A stretch of DNA of 64,000 nt. Source: Diadema setosum (lineage: Eukaryota). The notes below the pieces were generated by a model. The model was not told the origin of the DNA and ran no database searches. It saw only the letters and a list, made by a program, of their open reading frames with translations. A program made the position numbers and the translations under genes. This document shows, in pieces, positions 18,189 to 42,417 of this stretch; positions within the stretch are counted from its first letter, which is position 1, and every line of letters starts with the position of its first letter. The stretch spans positions 24,289,037-24,353,036 of the forward strand of contig NC_092698.1 in NCBI RefSeq assembly GCF_964275005.1. The letters run 5' to 3'.

Positions 18189-18312
18189 AACGAGGAAAGC
18201 GGGGAGCGCGAGTGCCACTATGCGGCCACTGCCGAGGAAGCCCTTCGCATCTACGAGGACATCTACAAGAGGCGGGCCAATGACGCAGACGTTCCGATGC
18301 AGCCCATATCGG
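18189..18312 (+). CDS. PARP4: PARP4-like exon encoding NEESGERECHYAATAEEALRIYEDIYKRRANDADVPMQPIS(G).
   Basis: A polypyrimidine tract plus cag acceptor at 18188 and a G|GTGAGA donor at 18313. The sequence resembles human PARP4 ...SEDASEYFENYIEELKKQGF.... The MEILLF... start shown in the ORF track is intronic polypyrimidine tract read as protein. Confidence 0.5.
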
Positions 18313-19746
18313 GTGAGATCAGTTCGAGATGGATCGGATCCGAGGCTCTTAGAAAGGTGGGGCGCGTACCAGAAATCGCAATGACAACAACAACAACAAC
18401 AACAACAATGGCAACAAGCAAAAAAAAACAAACAAACAAACAAACAAAACAAAAACGAGACAACCAGCCGCAATAGTCCTACTGAAAGCCATACAAAATG
18501 TTGATGACAATACAAAAACTGACAACGAAGATGATTGCAATGATACAACAATAAAATGATGATGTTGATTATGATCACGTTAATGATGATTTTAAGAACT
18601 ACTCTTTATAATCACACTAATAATGCGTGAACCATGTCCTTCCTAATCAATTTGCCTACCACAGACCATCAGTTGCTCAGAATGTAGTACTTAAACCTCA
18701 AAAGACGAGGAAGAAATGCCCCATTTTCATCATGGTTTTAAGTTCAAGGAAACACGCGTTATAAGACAGGGGTCATCTTTAGTGGCTAACTCATTGAAAA
18801 TCAGTTCATAATGGTTATGTAGCGAGCCCTTGTGACCGGAGTTGATGAGCGAACCCGCAACTAAACGTGATTTAAATTAACTAATGACGAATAATCAGCT
18901 GCAATAGTCAGAGTGTACATGCCATTTCTCTATGGCTAATATTTCTAAGCACTTCTCAATCCAAGCAAAATAAGGGCCTACCTGCCCGTGAAGGAGATAA
19001 TGGTGTGTGGTATGGTCTTATGCGCTTTATAAATTAAACGTGCGCATTAACTGGGAAACGATCCTGCCATTTACGAAATTCCAAACGTTTGTTGCTACTT
19101 TTGTTTCATTTATTTTTGTATTTTGTTGAATGGAAACAAAGCGGGCACTCCTGATTTAATTCTGACAGTGATTTTCTACTACATAAAATGGAGCAAATCG
19201 AGACCATTACTGTCAAGAACTGCAAAGAAAGTACCATGAGACCTAAATAACGTATAGAAAAGTGACTATTCCTCGCACAGTTTAAAAAATGAAACATAAA
19301 TCCTCTTTCTGTGTTTCCTCATTTGTTTTTCCTTCTGCGATTGTCTTCTTGTTCAGGAATCTGCTCCCTCAAAAAATAAAAGATAAAGAAAACGAACAAA
19401 TAAAAGTAAAGTCTAAGTGTAACCATTGAAAGCTTTAGATTCGTAGCTATTTTTGTTGTTTTAGATATGCTGCTGAATCCTGACCCACTTTTTTTTTTCT
19501 TTTATGCGTGATCTTTTGTAATCCATTTTGCAATATAACGAGAGCACAGACTAACCGCTTCCTTCAATGCAACAAACTATTCTTCTCAGTTCACTCACTT
19601 CCTTTCGTCCCTGTGTTGGGTTGGGATATCATCAACGAATACGCCACGAATAATGCAACGATAGGTTGATAGAAAACTCATGGCATCATAAATCACTTTA
19701 ATACCCATATAGACCTTGTTGTACCGGGAGACTTACTCACCTTCAG

Positions 19747-19856
19747 AGTCACTATCGGACGAGGTGGCCCAACTCGTGGACAACGTCTGGAAAGAGGCCA
19801 TGGGAACTCTCCGCGAAAATCTCTCGGTCAGGGTTGAGACCATACTTCCGGGTCAG
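19747..19856 (+). CDS. PARP4: PARP4-like exon encoding (E)SLSDEVAQLVDNVWKEAMGTLRENLSVRVETILPGQ.
   Basis: Matches PARP4 TLSQEVSDLVEMIWAEALGHLEHMLLKPVN. Acceptor ttcag|ag, donor cag|gtaaat. The phase is continuous with the 18189 exon (g + ag = gag). Confidence 0.6.
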
Positions 19857-20384
19857 GTAAATGACATTGATGGCACCCATGCACATTATGGCTCAAAAGA
19901 TAAGATGGAACCGACAAAAATTGAGCAAAATACAAAGCAAAGGACTCTCGAGGGGATCCCAAGAGAGAGAGAGAGAGAGAGAGAGAAGGGGGGGGGGTGT
20001 ACTACCCCCCCTCCCAACTTAATTAAAAAGAAATTGTTCCGCGGCCCCATTATAATGAGATAATTAATGCGGACACAGACACTCAAGGGATAGTCTTACT
20101 CGAAATCCTCCTTTCAAAATGTTAATAAATAAATAAATCAATAAATAAATAAATAAGTAAATAAATAAATAGCTAATAGAAGGAGCAGTTCTAAAAAGTA
20201 GAAATATTACGGGTTGACCATCGTTGTCAGTGTATGATGTCGATCAGCCTCAAAAGGAAACAAGTTTGTTCTCATTACAAACAACACATCCTGAAATCGC
20301 TCCTCGTGTAGATGCAGATAATCCTCTTCACTGCTTTAGTTTCGTGCTACTGTACTTCACAAAGTTGGCAACCCTTCTTCCTAG

Positions 20385-20648
20385 GTTGCCAAGGCCGAAG
20401 CCGTCCTTCATCAGCTTTGGCACCTTCTTCAGCGCCGACGTCGTCGAGACGATGAGAGGAAAGAAGGGGACGACGAAGATGAGGAGGACGAACAAGGGAG
20501 ACAAGAATCCTCGGATGCAGATCGCGAGGAGGAGGAGAAACTGGAGGAGTTGGAAAAGGAATTCTACGACTTGATACCGCACAAAGAAGACATGCGCAGT
20601 TCGCTGCTGCGCAAGGGAAACGTGGCGCTCAAACTGGATCTCTGTCAG
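20385..20648 (+). CDS. PARP4: PARP helical regulatory-domain exon encoding VAKAEAVLHQLWHLLQRRRRRDDERKEGDDEDEEDEQGRQESSDADREEEEKLEELEKEFYDLIPHKEDMRSSLLRKGNVALKLDLCQ.
   Basis: The EFYDLIPHK...LDLCQ stretch matches the PARP4 motif MMTEFYRLIPHKGTMPKEVNLGLLAKKADLCQ. Acceptor cctag|gtt, donor tgtcag|gttagg. 88 codons, phase 0-0. Confidence 0.8.
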
Positions 20649-21578
20649 GTTAGGGGAAAAGCAAGGGAGAAAACTGGGAATCAATCTAGAAGTATTGGCA
20701 AGTTTTCCTTTCATCTTATAATGTTCTGAAAGGAGACACCGCAAACTGTATAATGTGAAACGATTTGTTGTTTTTTTACAACAATCCGTATACACCCATG
20801 CGTATACACAAGAGAAATACATGCATGCACACAATGCAAATCTTAGTGCCATATTTTGATTTGCTGAAACTGCACCCGTCTTACACTCGAGACTTAGCGA
20901 ACAGTTCCAGCACACTCATTTTCATAAATTTATTGCTCTTGACATTGGGATTATACATGTGTTCAGCAAAAACCAAAACAAAACGGAAACAAAAAACAGT
21001 CTTACATTGATTTTTGATAAATAGGATAATGCCAGAGGAGAAGATTGCCAGAGGTTTCCTCAGCATCGGATATGAAATACCGATGTCATGGAATTCTCAA
21101 GTTTCGCATGAAAATGTTTTCACCGAATGTTGATCCGGGCGCAACCTCAAAGAAAAGTTTTGGTTTACCCGATGATTTCATCTTCTTATATATTTTCAGT
21201 TTGTTCGTGCATAACAAAAAAGAATAGGTTTTTCGTCGACAATCCAGCAGATGCATCCTTCACACTTTCTCCGAAAGTCATTTTTTGATACGTTATCAGG
21301 CAATGCTGCAATATGTAATAGGAGTGAGTATTCATTTCCAATTACGTACGTGCAATGTAAATATCCATAATATATCTACCAAAACTTAATCAAAAATTAG
21401 TGCTATGGAGATATCTTTACGAACATAACCACGTATGATTAGTCAGTGAAGCATTATCTTGGCAGTGTGCTCGGCAGTTTCAAAACAGTCTCATGATCCC
21501 TATATACTGTTGTTTCACAAGAGGAAAACAAAATGACGCATCACTAATGTGAATTTCGATGTACGGGTGCGGTTTTAG

Positions 21579-21739
21579 ATGATCCGGGATATCGTGCACA
21601 TCAGCGAGGAAACTGGCTGGCGCCAGCAGCCAACGACGCAGGCCAAGTACAAGGCGCTGAGGTGCTACATCCGGTTCCTGGAACCAGGCCATCCGGAGCA
21701 CGAGAAGATCAGAGATCTTGTGCTTTCCACAGTTCCTCG
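21579..21739 (+). CDS. PARP4: PARP helical-domain exon encoding MIRDIVHISEETGWRQQPTTQAKYKALRCYIRFLEPGHPEHEKIRDLVLSTVP(R).
   Basis: Matches PARP4 LIRDMVNVCETNLSKPNPPSLAKYRALRCKIEHVEQNTEEFLRVRKEV. Acceptor ttttag|atg, donor cg|gtaaac. Confidence 0.8.
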
Positions 21740-22442
21740 GTAAACTCTCCAGTAGTATGCTTCCGCCAAAAATGTACCCTCAAGTTCAAGTTTCAAGTTG
21801 TTTTATTTCATCTCCAACAAATTGAGGATACAATGAAAAATGTTTGGGTATACAAATAGTGACACGAAACCTGGTGTAACATTTTTCATTACTTTTTGTT
21901 CAAGAATCTTTGTCAGTTATAAGTCAAACAGCTACAAATACAAGTTTAAAGCTGTTAGGCCAATTTTAGAGCCAAATGGCAATTCAACTTTTTTTTTTTA
22001 ATTTAGCAAATACACGTAAAATATCTCAGCAACAGACGGACTTTCTATGCACTTTGCCGTGCCAAATGAAAATGAAAGTGGTTATGACTTCAAACAATGA
22101 CCGCAGTGTCCGGATGCCAACTTGCATCACTATGATGATGGTATGCAGTCAGGACAAGAAGTACAGCTGTCTTCCTAATCCAATACTCCGGAGGAACGTG
22201 CTATTATACTTTATCGCCGGAAATAGATATTTCCTTACCGTTAATTGCGTTCTCTGCCCCTCCTTAACTTTCACCGAATATATCAAGTTCAACTTACTTC
22301 CGACCGACGTATGAGCTATGCCCATCGTCTTTGTCAACATTTATTGTGCCATTTTGAGGGTTTTAGTACCATTTTTACTCCATTCCTTCAAAGTTAGTCA
22401 TCCGCCTTTTTTTTCAAATATCCTTCTTCATTCGTTTTATAG

Positions 22443-22580
22443 GGCAACAACCATCAACACACTTCGCATCTACGCGGTGAGTAGACCGCCTGAAGAGGAG
22501 GGATTCGACCGTGGGATAGGCAACGACAGACTGCTCTTCCACGCATCCAAACCAGCCAGCATCCTCGGAATCCTATCAAG
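22443..22580 (+). CDS. PARP4: Exon at the start of the PARP catalytic domain: (R)[45 protein letters not shown](R).
   Basis: Matches PARP4 VLQIFRVGRVNETTEFLSKLGNVRPLLHGSPVQNIVGILCRG. Acceptor ttttatag|g, donor caag|gtcgag. Confidence 0.8.
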
Positions 22581-22635
22581 GTCGAGCCTTTCAAAAATAT
22601 GTGACAGAAATAAATAAATAAATAAATAGAAAATA

Positions 22636-22692
<57 letters not shown>

Positions 22693-22723
22693 TCCATATT
22701 TACGAGACGTTTATATATATTTA

Positions 22724-22770
<47 letters not shown>
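22636..22770. repeat. Two (TA)n microsatellites, at 22636-22690 and 22725-22770.
   Basis: Direct reading. Confidence 0.9.
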
Positions 22771-22771
<1 letters not shown>

Positions 22772-23509
22772 GAATGCATGGTTTACATCTAAATAGGGGA
22801 AGACATTTCGATTTTTATATTTATTGATTTTTATTGCTTTTTAGTAAGGTTATCACATTTGCAAGTTTCATATGTTTTCGAGGATTAGTTGTTCTTGTAT
22901 GAGTCACTATGTTGTCGCTGCTTTGTATCTATCCCAAATATGTTCGTCCGACACTGTGTAAGAATCTCGATAATTATTTTGATAGTGTTAGAAATACGAT
23001 AACAGTTAATAAGGAAAATCACTGTGGTTTGATATACCATACCAGTTTTTTCAGTCTACATTTTGAGAAATTTATGACAAAGAAAGGCGCTTAGCTTGAA
23101 TTGAAAGTTATTGAATTCTCTTTTACATTTTTTTTCTTCTTCTTTTGCCGTGGTAATGGCTGTTATTTTATGATGGTGGTGATGAAAGTGGTGAATATCA
23201 TCATGTTCATTGTGATTGCTTATGTACCAACATTCTTCGGTAAAAACCTAATTATCGATATCAATTTACTGGTCTCTCTAACATTGCTTAAGAAACAAAC
23301 AAACAACAAACATGGCACTTTCTAGTCACCATGGCATCGTAATTCCGATCCGATTTGATTTCACCTGAGTTAAACCCTGATTTATTGGTTACTCTTCTTA
23401 AAATATAAAGAAATAAGTATGTGTGTGTGTCTCTGTCTATGTGTGTGTGCGTCTATCTGTGTGTACACTGTACTGTATACGTTTGTGGGTTATGTTTGTT
23501 CCACTGCAG

Positions 23510-23608
23510 GGGCTTGCTTATGCCGAAAATCGTTGTGGAAATGTTCGACGGATCGAGGCGAGACGAAGGACTACTCGGAGCTGGTCTTTACTTTGGAGAC
23601 AGGACGAG
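23510..23608 (+). CDS. PARP4: PARP catalytic exon encoding (R)GLLMPKIVVEMFDGSRRDEGLLGAGLYFGDRT(R/S).
   Basis: Matches PARP4 RGLLLPKVVEDRGVQRTDVGNLGSGIYFSDSLS. Acceptor cactgcag|g, donor acgag|gtggga. Confidence 0.8.
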
Positions 23609-24706: not shown

Positions 24707-24890
24707 CACTTGCATCCAGTACTGCAAGAATGGCTACTTCTCCAGAACTCGGATGATGTTCGTCAACAAAGTGGCGCTAGGATCCGTCAAAGACTGCTAT
24801 GAAGTGGACATGACATTGAAAGAAGCTCCGGAGGGATACAACAGCACGCATGGAGTGCGGGCGTCAGTGGATAGACCTTCAGAATTCACA
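24707..24890 (+). CDS. PARP4: PARP catalytic exon encoding (S)TCIQYCKNGYFSRTRMMFVNKVALGSVKDCYEVDMTLKEAPEGYNSTHGVRASVDRPSEFT.
   Basis: Matches PARP4 SIKYSHPGETDGTRLLLICDVALGKCMDLHEKDFSLTEAPPGYDSVHGV. Acceptor cttgtag|c, donor aca|gtaaaa. Confidence 0.8.
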
Positions 24891-25397
24891 GTAAAATAAT
24901 TTTGGAATGATTTCTCACGGTCTAGTGCTATTTATCGGAAAGTCATAATGTGTTGACGAACACGAATTGATCGAAATGCATGCACACATACACATATAAT
25001 TTATATAGATATGCACACATGTAGGGCCTACATGAGTACATACTGTGTATTCTAACGAATGCATTCTGTACATGCACAGTAGTGTATCATTTATTTGAAT
25101 ATCAGATTCTATCCTACGATAGCGAATGATACATTGATATATCCATACTTAAAGGTACTATTTACTATTGGGAGCAGTGATTTTAAAAATGTTCGAATTA
25201 TCACATTTGATGCTTATGTGTAGGTCAGTTGTATCAAAACAGTCCACCATTTGTAAGAAAATTTCTCGGTAAAGTCGAAAATATAAGGAGATGCCACTAT
25301 TTTACTCAATAAACCATAAAATAATGTAGACGGTTTATTTTAGAAAGAACAATTATTATAACTATTGTTGACATTTTGTATAGCTAACAAAACTATA

Positions 25398-26859
25398 GGG
25401 TTTCCCGGTCAATTTCATACTTTTGTCATTCAAGTTCCTATTCCGAGCATTCGATTTCACACATTCTACGCTCGCAGCACTGAATCAGCAATCAAATTCA
25501 AAATCCGGTCATTCGAATTCACTATCCGAGCATTCAAATTCACTATCGGAGCATTCAAATTCACTATCGGAACATTCAAATTCACTATCGGAGCATTCAA
25601 ATTTAAGAGAGGAGCACGCATTTCATCAATGAGCATTCAAATTCATGTCAAGCTGGCGACGGAATCTCGTCGGTCATTCAAATTCGTGAATAGGCAACCA
25701 TGTTCCAAATAACTGCATTCAGTTTAAAAAGAAGTACTGAATTTAGTTAGTTTGGGGCCGTGTATGCATTTCTTTCTCATTTGGCTTTGAATATATTGGG
25801 ATTTATGATGATTATTTATTTTGCAGTAGAGGTCCACCTGTTTATTGACAATTTTGAACTCGCGCTTAGCAAATAGGAATATACAGGCACATGTCCCTCG
25901 GATTGGACATAAAATGGAGGTCCCACATGTAAGAGAGTCACAACTCATGCACGTAAAAGATCCCACTTCATTTATTCATCGCAAAGAGCAGAACATCTAA
26001 CTGGACCCCATATGGAAGACCAGCTTTTGCAGCTGAATATGGGTTATCCAGCCATCTTCTTTGATAGAAAATGAAACAAACAAACAAAAATTAGGCACTG
26101 ATGTATAGGCCTACAGACGAGCATAATACGGAGGGTTGGTTGACACTTTCGAGGAAAAAACCACAATTTCGACTATATTGACACTGATACATGAACATTT
26201 TATACGTGCTGTTTGTTGTGTATTGCTGTCTTATTGGTTTACTTTTGCGGGACTATGTGAGATCATTGTGTGTCAGTTTGTCTTAATTGTCATTATGTGG
26301 TTGGTGTTGGGGCGTTGTCAGCATGTAGTATCGTCAAGGAATATGATTACTAGTCGTTGTGTTGTTTTTATGCACTGCTGATTGGACATTGCAATTTGAA
26401 ATTTATTAAGATGAAAAACAAAGAATACATGAACAGAGAACAATGTAGAACATGTAAAATATCCTAATTACACTATATGCAAACATTCATTGGTTGTGTT
26501 GGCCCTTTTTCCTTTCTTAAAATTCTCCTCCATTTTCCTCGTTAAATTGATTGCACGAAGTAGGAACTTGATCGCCTAAAAATGAATTTGAACGCTCCAA
26601 ACAAGCTCATTGGGACTATCACGTGACTATCGCATGAATTTGAATGCACGAGTAGGAAAGTCGGTGCTCGCATTTTGAAATTGAGTGCCCAATCGTGAAT
26701 TTGATATCACGAAAACGAAATAGAACGCTCATAAATGAAATTGATCGCTCGGATTCTGAATTTGAATGCCCGAATATTTTCGCGTGCGTGCGCTGCGTGA
26801 ATTTGAATGCACATTAATGAATTTGAGTGACATAAGTATGAAATTGACCGGGAAAACCT
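25398..26859 (+). mobile_element. Non-autonomous TIR DNA transposon, copy A (~1.46 kb). It has ~35-bp TIRs (GGGTTTCCCGGTCAATTTCATACTTTTGTCA), arrays of subterminal GCATTCAAATTC-type repeats at both ends, and an embedded SINE-like module. It sits in an intron of the PARP4-like gene.
   Basis: The 5' end gggtttcccggtcaatttcatacttttgtcattcaa is the reverse complement of the 3' end ttgagtgacataagtatgaaattgaccgggaaaacc. It is flanked by TATA on both sides. Tandem cattcaaattcactatcggagc repeats lie at 25500-25620, and the inverted repeat gaatttgaatgc lies at 26630-26830. Confidence 0.7.
25905..26090 (+). mobile_element. SINE-like retroposon module (conserved 3' part ending in a (CAAA)n tail), embedded in TIR element copy A.
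   Basis: Shares ggacataaaat.gagg.ccca..tgt.agag.agtcacaactcatgc...ttcattcatcgcaaa with the standalone copy at 43700-43807. The same module occurs inverted in copy B (about 30700-30950), and there is a partial copy at 45405-45545. Confidence 0.5.
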
Positions 26860-27186
26860 ATATTATACTAATTAACATTTTTTACATTGGGTGTTTCTAT
26901 CCCTAACTGACATTTTAAAACTATTTTTAAGCACTGAAGCTAGGTTTTTGTTTCAGCTGCAAATGGTAAATACCCTGGCAATACCTTTTAATCAATCCCA
27001 TTGATATCATCAGGGGCAGATATTACGTAACCCAAATTTTACAGCAGGCTTACCAAAGGAGCATAGCTGCATATAATTATGACGTCCATTACCTACACTG
27101 TCTTGAAGCCGTCTCTTCTGTATATTTGCAAGTGCACCGCAAACAGGAAAAGTTTTCTTTTACCGAAACTTTTTCGTCCCTTGCAG

Positions 27187-27334
27187 GAGGACGAGTACGT
27201 TGTGTATTCCGCCGGGCAGCAGTGCATACGATATCTCGTCGAGTTCAGCATCGACGGGGACGATGACATGGTGGACGGTTTCGACTTCCGAGAGGAAAGC
27301 GACGTGGAAGATGAAGAACCGTACGAGAAGATCG
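27187..27334 (+). CDS. PARP4: Exon at the end of the PARP catalytic domain: EDEYVVYSAGQQCIRYLVEFSIDGDDDMVDGFDFREESDVEDEEPYEKI(G).
   Basis: Matches PARP4 DDEFVVYKTNQVKMKYIIKFSMPGDQ. Acceptor ccttgcag|g, donor atcg|gtatgc. Anchored by the ORF-track frame 27079. Confidence 0.8.
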
Positions 27335-27392
27335 GTATGCTGCACTAATAGTCTTTCAGATGTTGCTGAGATTAGATATGAATAAACCGATG

Positions 27393-27656: not shown

Positions 27657-28190
27657 TAATGGTCTGTATTCAAATCATGCGTGGCAACGAGAGGTTGAAT
27701 TGTGCATTAGTTTACATGAGTTTACATGAGTTCACATAAAAGATACACACTCTCGCACGCGTACATACACTTGCTCGCACACGTTGTCCTCTCATATCAT
27801 CTTACTATATTGCACGTGGGTAAAACTAAAACCTACACTTCATACACAGCGATGAAAACAAGGTCTGAAGAAGAAAAGTTTGGAAATAACAAGACGCAAA
27901 AGCAGCGGGTAAGGAGGAAATAATGATGAAACTGAGAAGAAGATGGAGATGAGGGTATCATGGAGAGACGCAGGTTATATGGCGTAAAATTTCGCGGAAA
28001 TGGGGGATTGAGAATGTAATAATATAAACCCACTGGCTATCAACACGAAATACACATCAAAATGCATTCCTAATTAGTATTATTTTGTCCCTGATGGGAG
28101 GGCTCAGAGAGAGAATGAGAGGAAAGATCCGAGGAGGAAAAAGTAGGAGGTGGACAACTAAAGCATTCAATATCTTTCATCACTTTCCAG

Positions 28191-28324
28191 ATCTCCTGGA
28201 CGTACAAGGCTGCAGGGATCCCGTCAGTCAAATAGACGCCGGACTCGTAGCGGACAATGGACGGGAGTGCGTCGACCTGCGAGAAGTTCACATTCGTGGA
28301 CACATAACTGATCTTGCGGCCAAG
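28191..28324 (+). CDS. PARP4: Linker exon encoding (D)LLDVQGCRDPVSQIDAGLVADNGRECVDLREVHIRGHITDLAAK.
   Basis: Matches PARP4 GNLVPLEDVHIKGRIIDTVAQV. Acceptor ctttccag|at, donor caag|gtatac. Confidence 0.75.
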
Positions 28325-28644
28325 GTATACCCAGGATGATAAGATAGAAGAAGGAAAGAAAAATGAAGGAGAATAAAAAAAAATACGAAAGGAGGATAAG
28401 GAGAAGAAGAAGAAAAAGAATGAGGAGGAGAAGGAGGAGGAAGAAGAAGAGGAGAGAAAAAAATAACCCTATGCTAATTATCTGTTTATAAGAAAGGCAC
28501 GTGCGTCTAGTCAGCATTACCAATAATGTATTGTATCGATTTGACAAGTGGCAGCAATACGAGAGTAGTTCATGTGCGTTCAGTGTGTAGGCTTAGAGAT
28601 ATTGTCATTTCCCCCTTGTCCGGCTACAGATAACAGTCTTACAG

Positions 28645-28854
28645 GTGTACCAGAGCACAAAGTCCGACGGTGACGTTTCGGAAGCCCGTTATGTGTTCCC
28701 GCTCGACGACCGGGCGGCCGTCTGCGGCTTCGAAGCCTACATCAACGGGAAACACGTGATTGGTCAGGTGAAGACCAAAGAAAGGGCAAAAGAGGAATTT
28801 CAGGCTGCAGTCCGAGCTGGTCATGGGGCTTACTTGATGCAAGAGGAAGCGTCG
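28645..28854 (+). CDS. PARP4: VIT-domain exon encoding VYQSTKSDGDVSEARYVFPLDDRAAVCGFEAYINGKHVIGQVKTKERAKEEFQAAVRAGHGAYLMQEEAS.
   Basis: Near-colinear with the PARP4 VIT domain KYIFPLDDKAAVCGFEAFINGKHIVGEIKEKEEAQQEYLEAVTQGHGAYLMSQDAP. Acceptor ttacag|gtg, donor tcg|gttagt. 70 codons. Confidence 0.85.
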
Positions 28855-29375: not shown

Positions 29376-29564
29376 AACGTCTTCTCCGTGAGCATCGGCA
29401 ACCTGCCCTCCCTCGCCACCGTGGTCATCCAGATCACGTATGTCACCGAGCTCGGGGCGGAGGACGATCACGCGGTCTTCTCCCTGCTCGGCAGCGTGGC
29501 CCCGTGGATACGAAAGGAGATCCAAGGCAGTCAGTTGACCGCTGACCAGCAGGCGGTCTCCGGA
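29376..29564 (+). CDS. PARP4: VIT-domain exon encoding NVFSVSIGNLPSLATVVIQITYVTELGAEDDHAVFSLLGSVAPWIRKEIQGSQLTADQQAVSG.
   Basis: Matches PARP4 DVFTVSVGNLPPKAKVLIKITYITELSILGTVGVFFMPATVAPW. Acceptor ggacag|aac, donor gga|gtgagt. 63 codons. Confidence 0.8.
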
Positions 29565-29922
29565 GTGAGTGGGCGGGAGAATGAGAGGTGAATGCACTTT
29601 ACGTTATTCCTCAGACATTCTTGGCAAGTTCCAGCTCTGAACATAACCAATAGCAACCACACGTCTATCAGGGACCAGCTGAAGAACAGCCATTTGCTGA
29701 AGCAGGTTCCGTGCTAAAATAAGATAAAATAAGCTGAACTGTCTTCTTGATCTATTCGCTCATCGCAGTATTTACATAACCATGAGCAATTCATAATTTT
29801 GATCTCACTTGTATGCCGTAATTAATGCGTGGTGTCTTATCAATACTAGTTTCTATATGATTCCAGAAGTGACAGCCTGTTGTTTCACGAGTGGTCAGCA
29901 TGAGATTTGTAATAATAATATA

Positions 29923-31390
29923 GGTTTTCCCGGTCAATTTCATACTTTTGTCACTCAAATTCATTAATGTGCATTCAAATTCACGCAGCGCACGCACGCG
30001 AAAATATTCGGGCATTCAAATTCAGAATCAAAGCGATCAATTTCGTTTATGAGCGTTCTATTTCGTTTTCGTGATATCAAATTCACGATTGGGCATTCAA
30101 TTTCAAAATGCGAGCACCGACTTTCCTACTCGTGCATTCAAATTCATGCGATAGTCACGTGATAGTTCCCATGAGCTTGTCTGGAGCGTTCAAATTCATT
30201 TTTAGGCGATCAAGTTCCTACTTCGTGCAATCAATTTAACGAGGAAAATGGAGGAGACTTTCAAGAAATGAAAAAGGGCCAACACAACCAATGAATGTTT
30301 GCATATAGTGTAATTAGGATTGTTCACATGTTCTACATTGTTCTCTGTTCATGTATTCTTTGTTTTTCATCTCAATAAATTTCAAATTGCAATGTCCAAT
30401 CAGCAGTGCATCCAAACAACACAACGACTAGTAATCATATTGCTTGATGATACTGCATGCTGACAACGCCCTAACACCAACCACATAATGACAATTCATC
30501 AATTTAAGACAAACTGACACACAATGATCTCACATAGTGCCGCAAAAGTAAATCAATAAGACAGCAATACACAACAAACAACAAGTATAAAATGTTCATG
30601 TATCAGTTTCAATATAGTCGACATTGTGTTTTTTTCCCTCGAAAGTGTCAACCAACCCTCCGTATTATGCTCGTCTGTAGGCCTATACAGTGCCTAATCT
30701 TTGCTTGTTTGTTTCATTTTCTATCAAAGAAGATGGCTGGATAACCCATATTCAGCTGCAAAAGCTCGTCTTCCATATGGGGTCCAGTTAGATGTTTTGC
30801 TCTTTGCGATGAATAAATGAAGTGGGATCTTTCACGTGCATGAGTTGTGACTCTCTTACACGTGGGACCTCCATTTTATGTCCAATCCGAGGGACATGTG
30901 CCTGTATATTCCTATTTGCTAAGCGCTAGTTTAAAATTGTCAATTAACAGATGCATGGACCTCTACTGAAAAATAAATAATCATCATAAATCCCATATTC
31001 AAAGCCCAATGAGAAACACATGCATACACGGCCCCAAACTAACTAAATTCAGGACTTCTTTTAAATTGAATGCAGTTATTTGGAACATGGTTGCCTATTC
31101 ACGAATTTGAATGACCGACGAGATTCCGTCGCCAGCTTGACATGAATTTGAATGCTCATTAATGAAATGCGTGCTCCTCTCTTAAATTTGAATGCTCCGA
31201 TAGTGAATTTGAATGTTCCGATAGTGAATTTGAATGCTCCGATAGTGAATTTGAATGCTCCGAGAGTGAACTCGAATGACCGGATTTTGAATTTGATTGC
31301 TGATTCAGTGCTGCGAGCGTGGAATGCGTGAAATCGAATGCTCGGAATAGGAACTTGAATGACAAAAGTATGAAATTGACCGGGAAAACC
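29923..31390 (-). mobile_element. TIR DNA transposon copy B, an inverted and ~98% identical duplicate of copy A, in the next-but-one PARP4-like intron. It is followed by an (AAT)n microsatellite at 31393-31478.
   Basis: The reverse complement of 29923-31390 aligns end-to-end with 25398-26859, including the TIRs, the subterminal repeats and the SINE-like insert. Confidence 0.7.
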
Positions 31391-31477
<87 letters not shown>

Positions 31478-31992
31478 TTGAATAATATGAATAATAACAA
31501 TGATAATTATAACATTAACAATTATTATCATCATCATTATCATTAGTAGTAGTAGTAGTATTTGTAGTAATATCATCATAGCCATCGTAATCATTTTAGA
31601 ATGATGATGATTATCATTGTTGTTATCATTGTCATTGGAATTACTGTCAAAAATGATTTGTATGTTAAACATTGTTTCTATGATATTACAGTAAAAGTGA
31701 TGCGTTAAAATCAAAATCTGTATGTTGGAGTTATACATAATGATGAAACACGAACTACAGAAGACCAAATATTATCTAATAAAATCCTATTCGTACTTGC
31801 GCCCTCAGTCAACACGTTATGCCAATGTCCCTCTCGACCCAGTTGTAAAAATGGACATCTGGCAAAGCCGAGGCATTGAATAGCAAGTCGCTTAAAGAGA
31901 GGAGATGTAACACTAAAGATACTGCTCCATGTAAACGAGACTCCTCTAACATGTTTTAATTATTTTCATGACGAAACTCCAAACACAGGAAG

Positions 31993-32070
31993 GAATCTCT
32001 ACAACTCAGCATCAAGATGGCGTCGGATATTCAACGCCTGGAGTCGCCAACACATCAAATCAAGGCTAAG
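31993..32070 (+). CDS. PARP4: Exon encoding ESLQLSIKMASDIQRLESPTHQIKAK. The acceptor is uncertain by a few nt (alternative cag| at 31988).
   Basis: Matches PARP4 KQSFSLTMSIEMPYVIEFIFSDTHELKQK. Donor gctaag|gtatcc. The start at 31993 is the only choice that keeps phase 0 after the 29564 exon. Confidence 0.5.
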
Positions 32071-33299: not shown

Positions 33300-33434
33300 A
33301 TTGGAGGGAGCAAAGCAACTGTCACTCTACAGGACTCCGTTAAGTTAGGTGATGGTTTTCAATTGCTTGTGGGCGTTACTGATCCGCATCGGCCCCGCAT
33401 GTGGCAAGAATACGACCCGAAACGAGATTCTTAC
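33300..33434 (+). CDS. PARP4: Exon encoding IGGSKATVTLQDSVKLGDGFQLLVGVTDPHRPRMWQEYDPKRDSY.
   Basis: Matches PARP4 ...SSGFSLHIGLSAAYLPRMWVEKHPEKES. Acceptor (t)n acag|att, donor tac|gtaagt. Confidence 0.75.
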
Positions 33435-33996: not shown

Positions 33997-34186
33997 GCCA
34001 GCATGGCAGTCTTTTATCCTGAGTTTCCGGCGTTCGTGCCCATTGTTGACCCGGAAGTAGTTCTGCTCCTTGATTGCTCCACGTCTATGAAAGGGCAGCC
34101 GAAGGAGGACGCCAAGAAGCTGAGCAAACTGATCCTTGAGATGTTGCCAAGCCAAAGCCAATTCAATGTAATTGCATTCGGTACAG
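33997..34186 (+). CDS. PARP4: vWA-domain exon carrying the MIDAS motif: ASMAVFYPEFPAFVPIVDPEVVLLLDCSTSMKGQPKEDAKKLSKLILEMLPSQSQFNVIAFGT(G).
   Basis: Matches PARP4 ACMLVFQPDLDVDLPDLASESEVIICLDCSSSMEGVTFLQAKQIALHALSLVGEKQKVNIIQFGTG. Acceptor ccacag|gcc, donor cag|gtatgt. Confidence 0.85.
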
Positions 34187-34376: not shown

Positions 34377-34772
34377 GTTAAAGGATATGGTACAGTATTG
34401 GTGGATATGAGAATTGGGCTTTTAACTTTTTGCGAAATACCAAGAAAACTCTAATGATAATAGTACAGAGCATACCATTTTAGGAGGAATTCAAAGTTTA
34501 TTTGGTGAAAATCAGGTTTGAAATTATTGAAACATCCAAAAACAAAGTAAAACAAAGCGATCATAATAAAGTGTGGGTCCCACAATTTATTAGAATCGCT
34601 CTTTTTTGATATCTCAGCCATTTCAAAACCAATTTTCATCAAATGAATATTGAATTCCTCATAGAAGTACATGCTCTTTCATATTCTATAAGAGGTTTCT
34701 CATTATCTCACCAAAAAAAAATGTTAGAAACCTGAAATTAGGTCTCAACCAAAACTATACGATCCCTTTAAA
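34377..34772. mobile_element. Foldback MITE (A-variant), complete, about 400 bp. The whole body is a near-perfect palindrome.
   Basis: TIRs ttaaagg(g/a)at.gtacag / ctatacgatccctttaa. The left half (gaaaatcaggtttgaaat..) is the reverse complement of the right half (atttcaaaaccaattttcatc). More than 90% identical to the copy at 39490-39885. Confidence 0.7.
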
Positions 34773-34982: not shown

Positions 34983-35253
34983 ATTTTACCGAGGTTTTCC
35001 CGAGCGTGGTGCGCAACAATCGCTGCAATATTGACGAGGCCGTGGACTTCATAGAAAGAAGTTCGTCATCTGTGGGCGGCGGCGGATCGGAAGCGTGGCG
35101 CCCTCTTCGTTCCCTTTCGCTGCTGCCGCCGGCGAAGAACAGGACGCGTAACGTCTTCCTCGTGTCGGACGGTCATCTGACGAACGAGAAGCTCACGTTG
35201 CGCGTCGCCGCCGATCATCGACACGAGAACAGGATTTTCACGTTTGGCGTGAG
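34983..35253 (+). CDS. PARP4: vWA-domain exon encoding (D)FTEVFPSVVRNNRCNIDEAVDFIERSSSSVGGGGSEAWRPLRSLSLLPPAKNRTRNVFLVSDGHLTNEKLTLRVAADHRHENRIFTFGV(R/S).
   Basis: Matches PARP4 ...RYLSLLYPARGSRNILLVSDGHLQDESLTLQLVKRSRPHTRLFACGIG. Acceptor gtgaaag|at, donor gtgag|gtgaga. Anchored by the ORF 34943 frame. Confidence 0.8.
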
Positions 35254-35365: not shown

Positions 35366-35465
35366 TTCAACTGGGAATCGTCATCTGTTACGTGCCTTAG
35401 CAGACGTCAGTGGAGGGGCCTTTGACTTGTTTGAAGGGAAATTCAAGTCAAAATGGGAAGGCAAG
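35366..35465 (+). CDS. PARP4: vWA-domain exon encoding (S)STGNRHLLRALADVSGGAFDLFEGKFKSKWEGK.
   Basis: Matches PARP4 GSTANRHVLRILSQCGAGVFEYFNAKSKHSWRKQ. Acceptor ctgttacag|t, donor gcaag|gtatgg. Confidence 0.8.
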
Positions 35466-36290: not shown

Positions 36291-36503
36291 GTTGCTGCGC
36301 AGATACGTCGATGCCGACAACCGGCCGTCACCTCCGTTCAGACAAAATGGCGGATTTCGGAATCCGCCGGACAAGATGGCGGTGCAGGCGGGGCAGAGAA
36401 GGGTCAGCGAAAGGCAGAGCTGCTGCAGATACCAGCCCAGGTGTCGTCTGTTTTCACGGGGTCGAAGGTCATTCTTTTCTCGACAGGACCAAAAGCGGAG
36501 GAG
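36291..36503 (+). CDS. PARP4: Exon encoding VAAQIRRCRQPAVTSVQTKWRISESAGQDGGAGGAEKGQRKAELLQIPAQVSSVFTGSKVILFSTGPKAEE. This frame is absent from the ORF track because it has no ATG.
   Basis: Matches PARP4 QIEDQMTRLCSPSCHSVSVKWQQLNPDVPEALQAPAQVPSLFLNDRLLVYGF. Acceptor ccatgaaag|gtt, donor gaggag|gtgact. 71 codons, phase 0-0. Confidence 0.7.
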
Positions 36504-37645
36504 GTGACTATTATAACCATTGTGACGTCAGAGCATACCCTCTCATGGTTTTTCCCCTATGTTTTCGCTACTCTGTCTAGACAGGGAGGTGAGAGGTTCG
36601 CCTCCCTGGTATAGACGATGCCTGAACGGAGAATGTTTGGATATCCTTTGATGACTACAGCACTAAGACATTAGTGCCAGTACTGATGCTACCAAGCATA
36701 GATAAATTTATGAATCACCTAGTCAGGATAAAGTGTCTCAAAACTTTGATCCAGACTTGTAATCCTCTGCACCATCTCTACATGTAGTGTAGAGTTACTG
36801 ACTTCTAACAATGCGCAATCGGAGTTCTGGTTTGGACAGATACACTACTTTTAAAAGTAGTAAAAGTAAATTTTATGGATGACGACGTTTAACGCAGTTA
36901 TAATGTTTTTGTTTTGGGTTTGTTTGTTGTTGTGGTTTTTTTTTTTGCGTAAAGTCATTGCCCTCTTTCAACCTTGTTTCCCGTTCCTCCATCCCACAAA
37001 CTTCTATTCATGATAGCAGAGAATGCTCGGGAATCACGGAAATAATACATTTTGTATATTTATATGATAAAGGGTGAATACAGCAATCTGGATTTTCTCG
37101 AATATTCTTATTGTGTTCTTTTGAGTACTGTAATTTGTGATAATATTCAAATCGTCATCGCATTATCAATTTCAATATCCGGTAGGAATGGTTTAGTCAG
37201 ACCATGAGAATATATGTGTCAATACTTTGTTTTAATACTTAGGCTTAAGTCATTTGAATCAACAGAGAGCTATGTAAAAGTTCAGTATTTTATCTCCTAG
37301 GCCGATTAATGAGTGCTCTTTGTGTAGCTTTGGTGGTGTTTCCATTCGTAATCAAGAGAGTGCAACTATCACGACGTTGCAAACACCTAACATTGGGTAC
37401 AGCAGATAATGGGTATTGTACCAGCTGCGTTCGGTGTATCAGCTCGGGCATTTTTGCATCGTGATTTCCATTGTAAATGTAAAACACCATTGTGTCAGAC
37501 GCGATATAATTATAGACATTGACTGTAAACGTAATGTTATTTGCCTTTTTGAGCGTCAGTGGGTTTTCATAGGAGTTTTAAAGGGCATGATTGTGATCTG
37601 TCGTTGATGAAAGATTTGCCCTCTGATTTTCGGCAATCTCGACAG

Positions 37646-37726
37646 GTGAGCGTGTCAGCTGAAATGGACGGGAAAACCATTAGCGAAACCATAAGCTCGA
37701 CGTCTGCCGACCACGACGACAGTTTG
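37646..37726 (+). CDS. PARP4: Small exon encoding VSVSAEMDGKTISETISSTSADHDDSL.
   Basis: Acceptor ctcgacag|gtg, donor agtttg|gtaaga. Phase 0-0. Its length exactly fills the gap between the 36503 and 38389 exons when compared with PARP4 (...RTMVSTTELQKTTGT). Confidence 0.55.
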
Positions 37727-38388
37727 GTAAGAAACTGAGTGTAAATAACTGAATAATAAATACACGATTTTTTAATTCCTTCGCGAAATTGCTTACCTCT
37801 TGTCGCACAGGCTAGGTCAAGCCTTACTCATGACTAATCACACCTTTTCAATATACCAATTATATGTGCTATTAAAAAGAAATCGCGTACACTTTCCTGT
37901 TCACTTGTAAAGCAAATGCATTAATGATTATGAAACGCATTCAACCCCAACTACCGACTAGTTCCTATAAGCATTTCTTTTATGTAGCTCCACCATATTT
38001 TACAAAATTATTTTGGAATATATTGGAAGGGGATGGTAATAGATTTGAGTATTATAACACAACAATAATCTTATGTAATTCTCTTTTTTAACGGACCTAA
38101 GCTTTGGGATCGTTGTTTACTCAAAGATAACAATGTGTTGTCGATTCACCTCGACATCATTGTATTTAGTTTTGTAGCTATACACTTTTTTATGATTTGG
38201 ATTGTACGATGATGATTTGATATTGTTTGTCCAGTGATATGTATTGTATTTGGTTTTGTCGCGAGATGTGAAAAATAAATTCAATTCAATTGAATTTAAT
38301 TCGATTCAATGAGATGAGCATTGCTTTTTTATCAGTCTAAAAGTAAGCAGTCTGGCTGCGTATATCATTGTTTGTTTTATTAATTCAG

Positions 38389-38571
38389 ATGATACACCGC
38401 TTAGCAGCCCGAGCCCTGGTTCGCGAGTGGGAGATCGGATCCTTTGATCGCGATCACATGGCCCACGAGACACGCATGTATGATCTCAAGCCATTTCTGA
38501 CCGAGCTCAGTATCGCGCTATCGATAGTCACACCCTTTACCAGCTTTGTCGCGGTCGAGGAGCGAGACAGT
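38389..38571 (+). CDS. PARP4: Exon encoding MIHRLAARALVREWEIGSFDRDHMAHETRMYDLKPFLTELSIALSIVTPFTSFVAVEERDS.
   Basis: Matches PARP4 MIHKLAARALIRDYEDGILHENETSHEMKKQTLKSLIIKLSKENSLITQFTSFVAVEKRD. Acceptor taattcag|atg, donor agt|gtaagt. Confidence 0.85.
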
Positions 38572-39489
38572 GTAAGTTCAGCACCAGTCTAGACGAGTCG
38601 TATACAATATGTCTGAAAGTTGGAGAGATTATGAATACAGTTCTATTTTGATCTTTGAGAACATTTTGTCATGATTGAACGAAAACTTTCGTCTCTTTTT
38701 TTTGATATTTCATTGCTCGAAAATGACGTGAACAAAACAGACGATACAAGAGTCCTGTCATTTCATCAATTTCCAATAGTGCCAAATGGCAAAATACCAT
38801 TATTTCAATCGAAATAAGTTCTTTCGTAGATGAAGTAAAATAAAGTATCTATGTATGACAACTGTGGCAACCTAAACCTATAGACACATTTGGATCAAAA
38901 TGATACTTTTTCATGACTCTTTTTTTTTTTATTTAGGGATATTTTTATTGGATGCAAAAGACTGCAATTTGTCATCATCACTCACAAAAGGCTTCTTTTA
39001 TTAATGCAAGTACATTATGGATAGCTCTCCATTCGCCCCATTCTATCAGCAACTTGTTCTTTTGCACATGCAGTATAATGTCGATTAATCTTGTTCCTAT
39101 GCTACTTAAATATCAGTATATACCTTGAGTGTAGTGCAGCCGTATTGGCTGATTTTACATCGGACAAGAGCAAGGAAAGCTTCAGGAACAACCTTTGACA
39201 ATAAAGACCTGCATAAGAAATATTATATTGTTCATCAGCCTTCGGATGTGTCTATATAAAAAAGTGAAAATATAGTATTTTCTCACGAGCAAACTTAACA
39301 AAATGTGGGTGTTTTTTCTTTCTTAACTTTCTTCATTTTAAGTGCTGTACGTTATTCCGAAGGTTCGATAATCCACAATAAGGAAAAGGGATCTTTATTC
39401 TTAAGGTTGCTTACTTCGAAAAAAAAGGAAAAAATGAAAGGTGCGTGCAAATGAACCTTTGAAATAACGAACTTTATTTCGTTTATGAA

Positions 39490-39885
39490 TTAAAGGGATG
39501 GTACAGTATTGGTGGAGATGAGAATTGGGCTTTTAACTTTTTGCGAGATACCAAGAACACACTTATGATATAGTCCAGAGCATACCATTTTAAGAGGAAT
39601 TCAAAGTTTATTTGATGAAAATCGGGTTTGGAATGACTGAAACATCCAAAAACAAAGTAAAACAAACGATCGTAATAAAGTGTGGGTCCCACACTTCATT
39701 AGAATCGCTCTTTTTTGGATATCTCAGTCATTTCAAAACCAATTTTCATCAAATAAACATTGAATTCCTCATATAATTACATGCTCTTTCATATTTCATA
39801 AGGGGTTTCTCATTATCTCACCAAAAAAAAAAAAATGTCAGAAACCTGAACTTAGGTCTCAACCAAAACTATACGATCCCTTTAA
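39490..39885. mobile_element. Foldback MITE (A-variant), complete.
   Basis: Same TIRs and palindromic body as the copy at 34377. Confidence 0.7.
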
Positions 39886-39957
39886 CGAACCTTCGGAATA
39901 ACAAACTGTAACACATCCATTCACCTCGCTCAATGATTGTTATCACATGTCCTCCAG

Positions 39958-40065
39958 GACAAGCAGGAGCGAGGGGAACCCCCAAACGTTGCTGAGCTAA
40001 TACACATGATCAGCAGCGATGACCTAACGTCACTGTCCTGGAAGGAAGTGGCCGACGTACCATCG
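39958..40065 (+). CDS. PARP4: Exon encoding DKQERGEPPNVAELIHMISSDDLTSLSWKEVADVPS.
   Basis: Matches PARP4 ENESPFPDIPKVSELIAKEDVDFLPYMSWQGEPQEAV. Acceptor cctccag|gac, donor catcg|gtaagt. Confidence 0.6.
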
Positions 40066-41057
40066 GTAAGTGAGGGGGTAACCCCACATTTGCGACGAGG
40101 ACAAAAAGACGAAAAAATTGTAACTGATAGCAGTGATGGTACTGTTGACACTTGTTGACGATGAAGATTTTTGTCGGGGGGGGGGGGGGGGGCAAACCGG
40201 CGATGTTGCTGTTTGCAATGAAGCACTTACAGACTAATAATTGATGTTGCTGTTTGCAATGAAGCACTTACATTGTTACAGACTAATAACTAATGTTGCT
40301 GTTTGCAATGAAGCACTTACATTGTTACAGACTGATAACTGATGTGTTTCATGAAACTATATACTGCGTGTTCTCCTTTCTGGGAAATATTACATTGTTT
40401 GTATACAATGGAGAGAAGACCATAAGGGGAAAAATAATATTAAAAAGTTATGATGATGTTGATGCAGACACTATTGTGCTCTCAGTTGGCATATTGTAGA
40501 GGTTTTTACTTCTGTAACTTTTTTAGTGGAACATCTCATTTAGAAGAGAGTTTGCCGTATCACATTAATTGTCAGTATTGATTCTTTTTCAGTGCACATT
40601 GTAACGCCGTTTTTCTTGTGAAGATTCATGACAATGTGATGCATTTTCCTTTTTTTCCTCCACATTGTGCTACGCACGAACTCATATTTCCTTGAAAACC
40701 TACAATACCTACAAACTGTAGCTTTTCTTAGGTTTCCTTAACATTTTTTTTTTCTCTCTCTCAGCTCTGTGGCATCTGTAATATCAGCAAAATGGCCGTC
40801 GGCGTACAATCTTCGCTATATATTTTTGTTAGACATATTTTTGTACATGTTTTGTATTTAAGCATAATGTGTGTCGTTAATTTTTGAGAAATGTGAAATA
40901 ATCTAAACTGAAACAGAACTGAAACTTCGTGTAATCAAAGGTACAGTAAACTGGCGTTGGCAACAAATGCTTTTACACTACTAATGTATGCTTTGCACCC
41001 ACTTTGAATCGTCTGGAACTTTAAATGATATTTTGGGGATGGCTTTTCTCCGGACAG

Positions 41058-41207
41058 GAATCAACAGAGGGGATGATTGGCCGCCTGTTGAAACGCGCCA
41101 GGGCTGCGCAGTTTCATTTCTCCTATGCGTCTGCCGAGAAGTGCTATCATGGCGCCCTCAACGCCGCTCGAGACAACCTTCCCAACTTTCACCACTTGTT
41201 TCATACG
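41058..41207 (+). CDS. Candidate downstream exon encoding ESTEGMIGRLLKRARAAQFHFSYASAEKCYHGALNAARDNLPNFHHLFHT. Its gene assignment is unproven.
   Basis: A 50-codon open frame lying exactly between the acceptor ctccggacag|gaa and the donor catacg|gtaagc, phase 0-0, on the same strand. Confidence 0.35.
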
Positions 41208-42314
41208 GTAAGCAATCGTCTTGTTCTTGAGAGTCATCCGGGAAAGGCCAGGCATACCTCTTCTCTCTCCCTCCTTCCCTCCTTCCCTTCTCCTTCCAAC
41301 CATCTTTCTCTCATTTCACCTTTTCTCTCTGTCACTTAACACAAATAGATAAAGATTGGAAAAGAAATGAAATGGTGCAATCTTGAATTTGATTAATCAT
41401 TGTTTGGTTTGGTTTTATTTTTGCCTTTTTTCAAAATCACACATAACAAAAGAATACATATATTTAGAAATTAACATTACACGACTTTCCAAGAACTATA
41501 AGGAACTGGAATTCCCTGTCGTCAGAAATTGTTTCAGGGCCATCTGTGGGATCATTTCGAAACCGACTAACGGTTGATCACAGTGGCTAGTTGTTTTCTT
41601 CAAATTTTCTATGTGCTTGTAAATATCTGTAAATAAGCTGTATTATAATGCAAATAGCACAGTCTGCAAGAATCTTCAGCCTATTGAAGGAGGCAGACTT
41701 AATCAGAAGAAGAAGAAGAAGACTTGGGATTACATTTTTATCAGTATTAGCATTAAACCGTTAAGGTAGTTGTAGTCGTAGCATCTTTGTCATTGTTTTC
41801 ATCTTCCTCAAAATTACTGTCATCATTTTTTTTTTACATCGTTATCGCTACACTGGTGCCTCTAGGAGATCTGCTACTACTACAATTCGTCCTAATACCA
41901 CGTCATTATCATAATCAATATCAATACGCTTAATGAATTTGTATCTTATATTCTTGCTCAGTGGTAAATAGGATATGATATCTGGTAAAAGACAAACGCA
42001 ATATTTCTAACGAAATCCTACTCTGAATACCATGTCATGTTTTAAGGATATATCTTTACCTCTAGGCGTAGTGACCTGAGGTTTATAAATTACTTTTTGC
42101 AGGTAAATGTTTACTGTATCACCATCCCCTCCCCCTCTCTAAGAATTGTCAAACGCTAAAAAAACAAAAAACGAAAATCTGATATTTTGTGTTATCTACA
42201 CACATCTCCACTCTTGTCTTCCAACTAATTTTCCATTCATTCCGTACATGACGTCATTCGTTGCATTTTCATTGCCTCATGCTGCTGCAAATCTCCATTT
42301 CTGTCCGATACCAG

Positions 42315-42417
42315 TGCTGCCTGGCGATCTCAAAGTTCACGTTACAGGTCAAAGGTGACGCAGTACAGGCGATGGAGTGGCTCAGACCTGCTGTAGCCAC
42401 GCCCCCGGTTGTGAGCG
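42315..42417 (+). CDS. Candidate exon encoding CCLAISKFTLQVKGDAVQAMEWLRPAVATPPVVS(G).
   Basis: Acceptor gataccag|tgc and donor agcg|gtaaga. The frame is open. Confidence 0.3.

Follow-up and report, generated by a model that had tools for sequence, protein, structure and literature searches.

The 64,000-nucleotide stretch of Diadema setosum DNA analysed here (contig NC_092698.1, positions 24,289,037 to 24,353,036 of the forward strand; hereafter the window) very probably carries an intact, spliced gene of 30 exons encoding a clade-5 vault PARP (PARP4-like) of 1838 aa, and the interval 18189-42417 corresponds with the same high confidence to exons 4 to 25 of this diadematid sea urchin gene. The family is a known one, and a sister species already has an annotated orthologue in RefSeq. 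The gene call itself is of little weight, since PARP4 is well known and sea-urchin PARP4-like genes are in the literature (PMC4245714). The gain lies in a complete and corrected gene model, in which 30 exons over 39 kb replace 24 kb.

Spliced alignment of the D. antillarum protein XP_071477881.1 places the 30 coding exons on the plus strand, from an ATG at 12440 to a TAA at 51560-51562. Every one of the 29 introns has GT-AG ends, and the frame of 5517 nt stays uninterrupted and phase-compatible throughout its 1838 codons. The coding region covers about 39 kb, of which 18189-42417 (24 kb) is the middle part, 18189 being the first base of exon 4 and 42417 the last base of exon 25. A preliminary description of this DNA had proposed a gene over about 24 kb between exactly these two positions, with at least 20 plus-strand exons bounded by phase-compatible AG/GT sites. 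Its end coordinates are both exact exon boundaries, the 14 peptides that it quoted all lie on the plus strand where it had placed them, and the interval holds 22 such exons (nos. 4-25), encoding about 1164 aa with no stop. The exons are thus real, but the proposed extent was truncated at both ends and left out eight of the gene's 30 exons, three upstream (12440-12468, 15638-15695 and 16881-17090) and five downstream (within 46174-51562).

Boundaries were set by a purpose-written protein-to-genome spliced aligner using BLOSUM62, GT-AG introns in three phases and simple splice-site bonuses. Five homologues used as queries gave the same internal boundaries in all runs from 18189 to 40065, and tblastn with PARP4-like proteins from the database showed colinear matches beginning at 16.8 kb, upstream of 18189. 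A partial model made of 15638-15695, 16881-17090 and the exons to 40065 (22 exons) yields an open frame of 1169 aa. The start exon was also sought by similarity to the Lytechinus pictus N-terminus, which gave noise only; alignment of XP_071477881.1 later located exon 1. Its ATG at 12440 has an in-frame TAG 11 codons upstream. Micro-exons or mini-introns at 27940-27954, 29850-29878, 36382-36435 and 48610-48690 were aligner artefacts obtained with distant queries, and were ruled out by phase, by the close orthologue and by a second D. antillarum protein, XP_071487843.1.

The six-frame open reading frames of the window are short and disconnected. An explanation by chance fragments was rejected: the similarity is far beyond chance, as judged from Pfam E-values above curated cut-offs (PARP 2e-22, VIT 2.4e-32, VWA_3 2.2e-17) and from the phmmer match to human PARP4 (E 2.7e-188). 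With the Pfam gathering scores as thresholds, the spliced 1169-aa partial model scores 80 bits for PARP, 112 bits for VIT and 64 bits for VWA_3, so that all three of the domains attributed to the gene in the preliminary description are recovered above their cut-offs. The match to the 1724-aa human chain (PDB 11jf_P, 9bw6, 9bw7) aligns model residues 251-1172 with human residues 312-1212 in colinear order, in agreement with the near-colinearity with vertebrate PARP4 that had been proposed, and an additional weak stretch relates model residues 110-212 to human residues 204-302. The PARP4-like assignment likewise stands. In the PDB, the segment formed by the helical regulatory domain (HD) and the ADP-ribosyltransferase (ART) domain matches PARP4 (8sx1) at E 2e-61, compared with 3.5e-16 for PARP2, 2e-13 for PARP3 and about 5e-13 for PARP1, and D. 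antillarum PARP4-like proteins are 88-90% identical over their full length. All strong matches of the concatenated exon peptides in the protein database were PARP4 or PARP4-like proteins, from corals, fishes, birds, oyster and Ciona, and the top local identity in that search (64%) was with the PARP4-like protein of the sea urchin L. pictus. A vertebrate origin of the DNA was rejected, as the best identities are echinoid.

The closest relatives are two D. antillarum proteins. XP_071477881.1 (1813 aa), named protein mono-ADP-ribosyltransferase PARP4-like, is 88.5% identical to the model, and its cluster mate XP_071487843.1 (1835 aa), from another contig, is 89.6% identical. Both share the length class and domain order of the model, from an MAAVKKNLLD start to a ...VLEC or ...VLQC end. 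Broken down by region, identity to these proteins falls from 95-98% in residues 1-1300 to 72-76% in exon 28, and it stands at 88% for the C-terminal domain. That D. antillarum has two copies about 98% identical to each other on different contigs, that exon 28 diverges fast and that the introns are filled with repeats could suggest a decaying pseudogene or a recent non-functional duplicate. We find this scarcely credible given a frame of 5517 nt unbroken over 30 exons, canonical splice sites throughout, a conserved catalytic triad and, across the first 1300 residues, a degree of identity to the D. antillarum proteins that fits purifying selection.

The N-terminal region of the protein is encoded by the first exons. 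Exon 1 (12440-12468) contains the ATG and encodes MAAVKKNLLD (residues 1-10), ten residues identical to the D. antillarum N-terminus in the alignment of XP_071477881.1, with a GGA|gtaagt donor. Exon 2 (15638-15695, residues 10-29), with acceptor ctttccag and donor CAG|gtaaag, matches L. pictus XP_063953943.1 and XP_071477881.1. Exon 3 (16881-17090, residues 30-99), which includes a Ser/Thr-rich stretch, was found by tblastn and spliced alignment. The N-terminal 100 residues are unalignable with human PARP4. Exon 4 (18189-18356, residues 100-155), together with exon 5, aligns weakly with human residues 204-302.

The HD, of the PARP1 type, directly precedes the ART domain and aligns with that of human PARP4 (EFYRLIPHK...ADLCQ...AKYRALRC). 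It begins in exon 5 (19713-19856, residues 156-203; spliced alignment and PDB search), continues in exon 6 (20385-20648, residues 204-291) with an acidic insert and EFYDLIPHK...LDLCQ, and ends in exon 7 (21579-21739, residues 292-345; AKYKALRC; same two lines of evidence). The ART domain occupies the next four exons. Exon 8 (22443-22580, residues 345-391) contributes His378 (LLFHAS), aligned with the catalytic His of human PARP4. The other three, also placed by spliced alignment and PDB search, are exon 9 (23510-23608, residues 391-424) with Tyr418 (GAGLYFGD), exon 10 (24707-24890, residues 424-485) with VNKVALG and KEAPEGYNSTHGV, and exon 11 (27187-27334, residues 486-535) with the catalytic Glu488 (EDEYVVY) followed by an acidic linker. 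In the PDB search, H378, Y418 (GLYFGD) and E488 (DEYVVY) align with the H-Y-E triad of human PARP4. The enzyme would accordingly be expected to bind NAD+ and transfer ADP-ribose to protein targets, presumably as mono-ADP-ribosylation, judging from the name given to the human protein in RefSeq and the PDB.

The L. pictus PARP4-like protein XP_063953943.1 (491 aa) ends in VGVFALFSIG, an apparent intron read-through after the equivalent of exon 10 (24890/24891 in the window). Because of this apparent read-through, it would be either a truncated model or an isoform devoid of the exon encoding the catalytic Glu.

C-terminal to the catalytic domain, the colinearity with human PARP4 extends through VIT and vWA domains as far as human residue 1212. 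The VIT domain begins in exon 12 (28191-28324, residues 535-579; Pfam VIT and VIT_2), has its core in exon 13 (28630-28854, residues 580-654; YVFPLDDRAAVCGFEAYINGKHV...GHGAYLM; Pfam VIT 112 bits) and ends in exon 14 (29376-29587, residues 655-725), whose donor at 29587 was set by phase and XP_071477881.1. An ITIH-like region follows in exons 15 (31989-32070, residues 725-752; spliced alignment) and 16 (33300-33434, residues 753-797; tblastn and spliced alignment). The vWA domain starts in exon 17 (33997-34186, residues 798-861; Pfam VWA_3 64 bits), continues in exon 18 (34983-35253, residues 861-951; alignment with human PARP4) and ends in exon 19 (35366-35465, residues 951-984; tblastn and spliced alignment). 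Exon 17 contains the DxSxS motif (DCSTSM: D823, S825, S827) of a site resembling a metal-ion-dependent adhesion site (MIDAS), and exon 18 contains GGGGSEAW and LVSDGH, the latter with D923. The preliminary description had regarded the MIDAS as intact. DxSxS and D923 of this putative metal site are present, whereas the position of the MIDAS Thr of human PARP4 (GNTDFW) is occupied by Ser896 in the urchin. The FGTG quoted as part of this motif arises when exon 17 is read past its donor; after splicing the sequence is FGTD, and in any case FGTG does not belong to a MIDAS.

The ITIH-like region resumes after the vWA domain in exon 20 (36291-36503, residues 985-1055), which is continuous in XP_071477881.1 and aligned with human PARP4. 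Exons 21 (37646-37726, residues 1056-1082; spliced alignment), 22 (38389-38571, residues 1083-1143; HRLAARA...TSFVAVEERD; tblastn and spliced alignment) and 23 (39958-40065, residues 1144-1179; ...NVAELI...LSW) complete the part alignable with the human protein, exon 23 being the final segment, to human residue 1212. Inter-alpha-trypsin heavy chains (ITIH) and VWA5A display the same VIT, vWA and TSFVAVE tail as the urchin gene but have no PARP catalytic domain. The VIT-vWA block would likely act as a protein-interaction platform. Overall, human PARP4/vPARP (1724 aa; PDB 8sx1, 9bw6, 9bw7, 11jf) shares the colinear series HD, ART, VIT, vWA and ITIH-like tail, and in both proteins a long disordered linker then leads to a small helical domain at the C-terminus. 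They differ in that neither the 14-3-3-like fragment nor the R-SNARE-like motif of the urchin protein can be detected in the human one.

Additional modules are also seen in other invertebrate PARP4-like proteins: synaptobrevin and an N-terminal piece of actin after the vWA domain in an oyster protein (P0016), 14-3-3 in P0064 and ubiquitin at the C-terminus of a Bulinus snail protein (P0065). It seems that the tail of PARP4-like proteins is a favoured site either for acquiring domains or for the fusion of gene models. In D. setosum, the 14-3-3-like fragment is encoded by exon 24 (41058-41207, residues 1180-1229; helical) and ends in exon 25 (42315-42417, residues 1230-1264; donor GCG|gtaaga), both placed by spliced alignment. 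Together they match profile positions 136-217 of 223 of PF00244 (14-3-3; E 0.012, 15.6 bits against a cut-off of 33.2). The related PARP fragment P0064 scores 34.8 bits, over the cut-off, at the equivalent position. PARP4-like proteins with an appended 14-3-3 were described in Strongylocentrotus purpuratus, Branchiostoma, Capsaspora and amoebae (Perina et al., 2014, PMC4245714). As in that type, VIT and vWA domains of the urchin gene are followed by a 14-3-3-like segment, of which, by comparison, only the last third of the fold is recognisable; exons 24 and 25 would thus fit the 14-3-3-appended type reported for S. purpuratus. Pfam searches of the three plus-strand frames of 40066-43900 returned nothing, the copy of Pfam used being one that does not report PF26156 or PF26166.

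Spliced alignment places two small exons beyond the 14-3-3-like fragment, exon 26 (46174-46225, residues 1264-1281) and exon 27 (47000-47055, residues 1281-1300). A tandem repeat with a 122-nt unit (46187-46485; 2.5 copies, 93% matching) has exon 26 at its 5' edge, and the first copy contains most of the exon together with the exon's donor. Two further exon-26-like copies with gtaagt donors are found just downstream of it.

Exon 28 (47758-49028, 1271 nt, residues 1300-1723) encodes a proline-rich, fast-evolving linker, and was placed by coding potential together with XP_071477881.1 and XP_071487843.1. Its frame (47.7-49.0 kb) has the top codon-usage log-odds of the window when training is restricted to the confirmed exons, exon 28 excluded. 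An exhaustive HMMER search with this frame against 1.84 billion representatives gave a single match, residues 1300-1702 of XP_071477881.1 (E 5.7e-161, 79% identity). No match at E <= 1e-3 was found in a word-indexed protein database, probably because low-complexity words swamped the candidates. An apparent intron of 81 nt within the exon is an indel in XP_071477881.1; because the segment is present in XP_071487843.1, exon 28 is continuous. Several indels separate it from D. antillarum, and 12 Pro codons stand in a row at 48489-48524. Exon 28 encodes a predicted disordered linker that evolves far more rapidly than the remainder of the protein, in parallel with the disordered linker described for human PARP4 (PMC10450202), and fast evolution has been described for primate PARP4.

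The R-SNARE-like motif (residues 1411-1452, ...SERGDRLHDLQEKSDDLAASAAQFSSSTRRIKSGLNW; 48090-48215) lies within this linker and is the sole unexpected feature of the gene; its function is speculative. It scores 30.1 bits against PF00957 (Synaptobrevin, cut-off 26.4), over profile positions 25-66 of 89 only, and the oyster protein P0016 also matches PF00957 at the corresponding relative position, after its VIT-vWA block. A profile built from the urchin and oyster segments retrieved only R-SNAREs from the PDB, with VAMP4 (E 1e-11), Snc1 (3e-8) and VAMP2 (about 4e-7) ahead of lower matches to Ykt6, tomosyn (1urq, E 4.6e-4), VAMP7 and Sec22b; it gave no match to human PARP4 there. In ERGDRL, the Arg falls opposite the Arg of the ERG in VAMP4 and Snc1; we take this residue to be at the zero-layer position, corresponding to R56 of VAMP2 by our own count of the VAMP2 sequence. 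Brevin-type R-SNAREs (VAMP4, Snc1, VAMP2) and tomosyn have in common with the urchin motif the core ERG-x2-L-x2-L-x-[ED]K[SA], including the presumed zero-layer Arg and the layers after it. Unlike that of brevin R-SNAREs, the urchin motif is anchor-less, sits inside a disordered PARP linker and is poorly conserved even among Diadema-like species. Its N-terminal half is degenerate. No membrane anchor was recognised after the motif on reading the sequence, where a proline-rich stretch (...WLPSFGSGEAAPPPLVPSRGYGPP...) with no hydrophobic segment follows. Since the D. antillarum copies have a Pro within the helix and miss the Synaptobrevin threshold, the motif may be a decaying relic.

A bolder proposal, which we consider unlikely, would be that invertebrate PARP4-like proteins (echinoid and oyster, hence possibly the ancestral bilaterian ones) contain, between the ITIH-like region and a vault-docking domain, an R-SNARE motif that works without an anchor and was later lost in vertebrates. 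Tomosyn has an R-SNARE motif without a membrane anchor, and by analogy such a motif could enter or block SNARE bundles. A functional motif would tie a vault PARP to the machinery of membrane fusion and, at the molecular level, vault components to membranes, which would be in keeping with the membrane-bound vaults observed recently (PMC13100048). A full-text search found no literature linking PARP4 with synaptobrevin.

The same Synaptobrevin score, along with an ATG near the start of exon 28 (47787) and a LINE (long interspersed nuclear element) fragment between the two parts (43967-45428), could point to two genes fused by the predictors, a PARP4-like gene ending at about 42.4 kb and a separate SNARE-like gene made of 47758-49028 and exons 29 and 30. 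The chimeric look of the oyster model P0016, with its actin fragment, could be taken in the same sense. Such a split is nevertheless very improbable. Exon 25 has no stop and ends in a strong donor (GCG|gtaaga), phases are compatible across exons 25, 26, 27, 28, 29 and 30, and both parts are joined in two independent RefSeq models of D. antillarum. The oyster PARP4-like model also has a VIT-vWA block followed by a SNARE-like motif. Finally, the domain encoded by the last two exons, characterised by a GYWEL motif, belongs to PARP4 and VIT-vWA proteins, so that the transcript must cross exon 28.

Within the single 30-exon gene, exons 29 (50810-50882, residues 1724-1748; AGYWELSAVYEIF...; spliced alignment) and 30 (51288-51562, residues 1748-1838 and TAA; coding score and spliced alignment) encode an all-helical terminal domain that begins with AGYWEL and is possibly MINT/MVPID-like. 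The GYWEL-type motif is common to the tails of fish PARP4 and of bacterial VIT-vWA proteins (GxWDL in the latter). A mixed profile of urchin, fish and bacterial tails matches residues 1574-1679 of human PARP4 (E 1.6e-4), inside the MINT domain, which spans residues 1562-1724 (PMC12280208). A hidden Markov model (HMM) of fish and bacterial VIT-vWA tails found no match among six-frame pieces and reached 7.9 bits on the spliced C-terminus; the six-frame search came out empty because the domain is split over exons 29 and 30. A helical domain resembling the MVPID of PARP4 has also been reported at the C-terminus of VWA5A (PMC10450202), and vaults are present in sea urchins according to a passage in PMC12547018, which cites Hamill and Suprenant (1997). 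By its position and its GYWEL motif, the terminal domain would correspond to MINT/MVPID, from which we infer vault docking: the long, disordered and proline-rich linker of exon 28 would tether a small helical domain resembling the one through which human PARP4 attaches to the inside of the vault shell.

Several points weigh against the gene being that of a vault PARP in the full sense, or against details of the model. The exon junctions are predictions, made from homology, phase and the splice consensus. On the HD, Pfam PARP_reg reaches 20.3 bits for a cut-off of 26.8, and the 14-3-3 match of exons 24-25 is sub-threshold. For the C-terminal domain, the urchin-only profile gives an hhalign P-value of 0.0096 and a probability of 4%, direct phmmer comparison with MINT gives no match, and an AlphaFold2 model from a 9-row alignment has a predicted local distance difference test (pLDDT) score of 60.6, with nothing below E 2.8 in Foldseek against the PDB. 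Animal PARP4 normally carries an N-terminal BRCT domain (PMC4245714, PMC10450202). Nothing relevant was found by tblastn of ten BRCT-bearing homologues against the window, and the best six-frame hit of a BRCT HMM made from these ten homologues had an E-value of 1.8; this negative covers the 64-kb window, and exons beyond its 5' end are possible. Pfam BRCT is likewise absent from the 1169-aa partial model and from the D. antillarum orthologues, and is found in the coral homologue P0002. Moreover, PARP4 is duplicated in sea urchins (Perina et al., 2014, PMC4245714), and the copy described here may consequently not be the vault-resident one.

These last points lead to the most serious competing view, in which the gene is real but a paralogue rather than the vault-resident orthologue of vertebrate PARP4. 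We regard this as a distinct possibility, albeit the less probable one. The missing BRCT and the weak MINT similarity are consistent with it, as are the 14-3-3-like character of exons 24 and 25, with the related fragment P0064 over the 14-3-3 cut-off, and the report of a PARP4 duplication in the sea urchin and of a 14-3-3-bearing PARP4-like type in S. purpuratus. So are the related invertebrate fragments with differing extra modules (ubiquitin, actin, synaptobrevin). The very strong similarity to human PARP4 across 900 residues and the terminal position of the GYWEL helical domain, as for MINT, argue for orthology instead; in addition, no second, BRCT-bearing echinoid PARP4 was seen in the protein database, which apparently lists only proteins below about 1000 aa. 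An echinoid form with no detectable BRCT and a marginal MINT-like tail is relevant to the question whether PARP4-like enzymes of invertebrates form part of vaults at all.

The surroundings of the PARP4-like gene have a eukaryotic look, with a GC content of 35-45% across the window, microsatellites and LINE fragments. An inverted repeat of 1.5 kb, with arms at 25394-26866 (intron 10) and 29915-31394 (intron 14) that are 95-98% identical and contain internal 21-nt tandem units, brackets exons 11 to 14, that is, the end of the catalytic domain and the VIT domain. The arms look like two copies, in opposite orientation, of one repeat element, and they might base-pair within the pre-mRNA or favour inversions. 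A short interspersed repeat occurs at 34460-34721 (intron 17) and 39570-39831 (intron 22) in copies that are 93% identical, with an inverted partner at 39531-39652.

The LINE-type fragment of intron 25 lies on the minus strand, antisense to the gene, and encodes part of a reverse transcriptase (Pfam RVT_1, E 1.7e-20). In intron 1, a plus-strand open reading frame of 192 aa (14079-14657; ...ILYNALILPHITYCNIVWG...) resembles, by eye, the C-terminal part of a LINE ORF2, with no Pfam match. Rfam and tRNA scans of the window found nothing. Upstream, 171-647 on the minus strand encodes 159 aa of coding-like composition with no Pfam match and may be an exon of a neighbouring gene. Downstream, the minus strand carries exons of a gene from the amiloride-sensitive sodium-channel (ASC) family, which is convergent with the PARP4-like gene; they extend over 54770-60182, possibly to 62769. 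No Pfam match was obtained for the piece at 62590-62769; among three other exon pieces, Pfam ASC gives 46.5 and 41.6 bits for two, above the cut-off of 23.6, and 21.5 bits, just below it, for the third.

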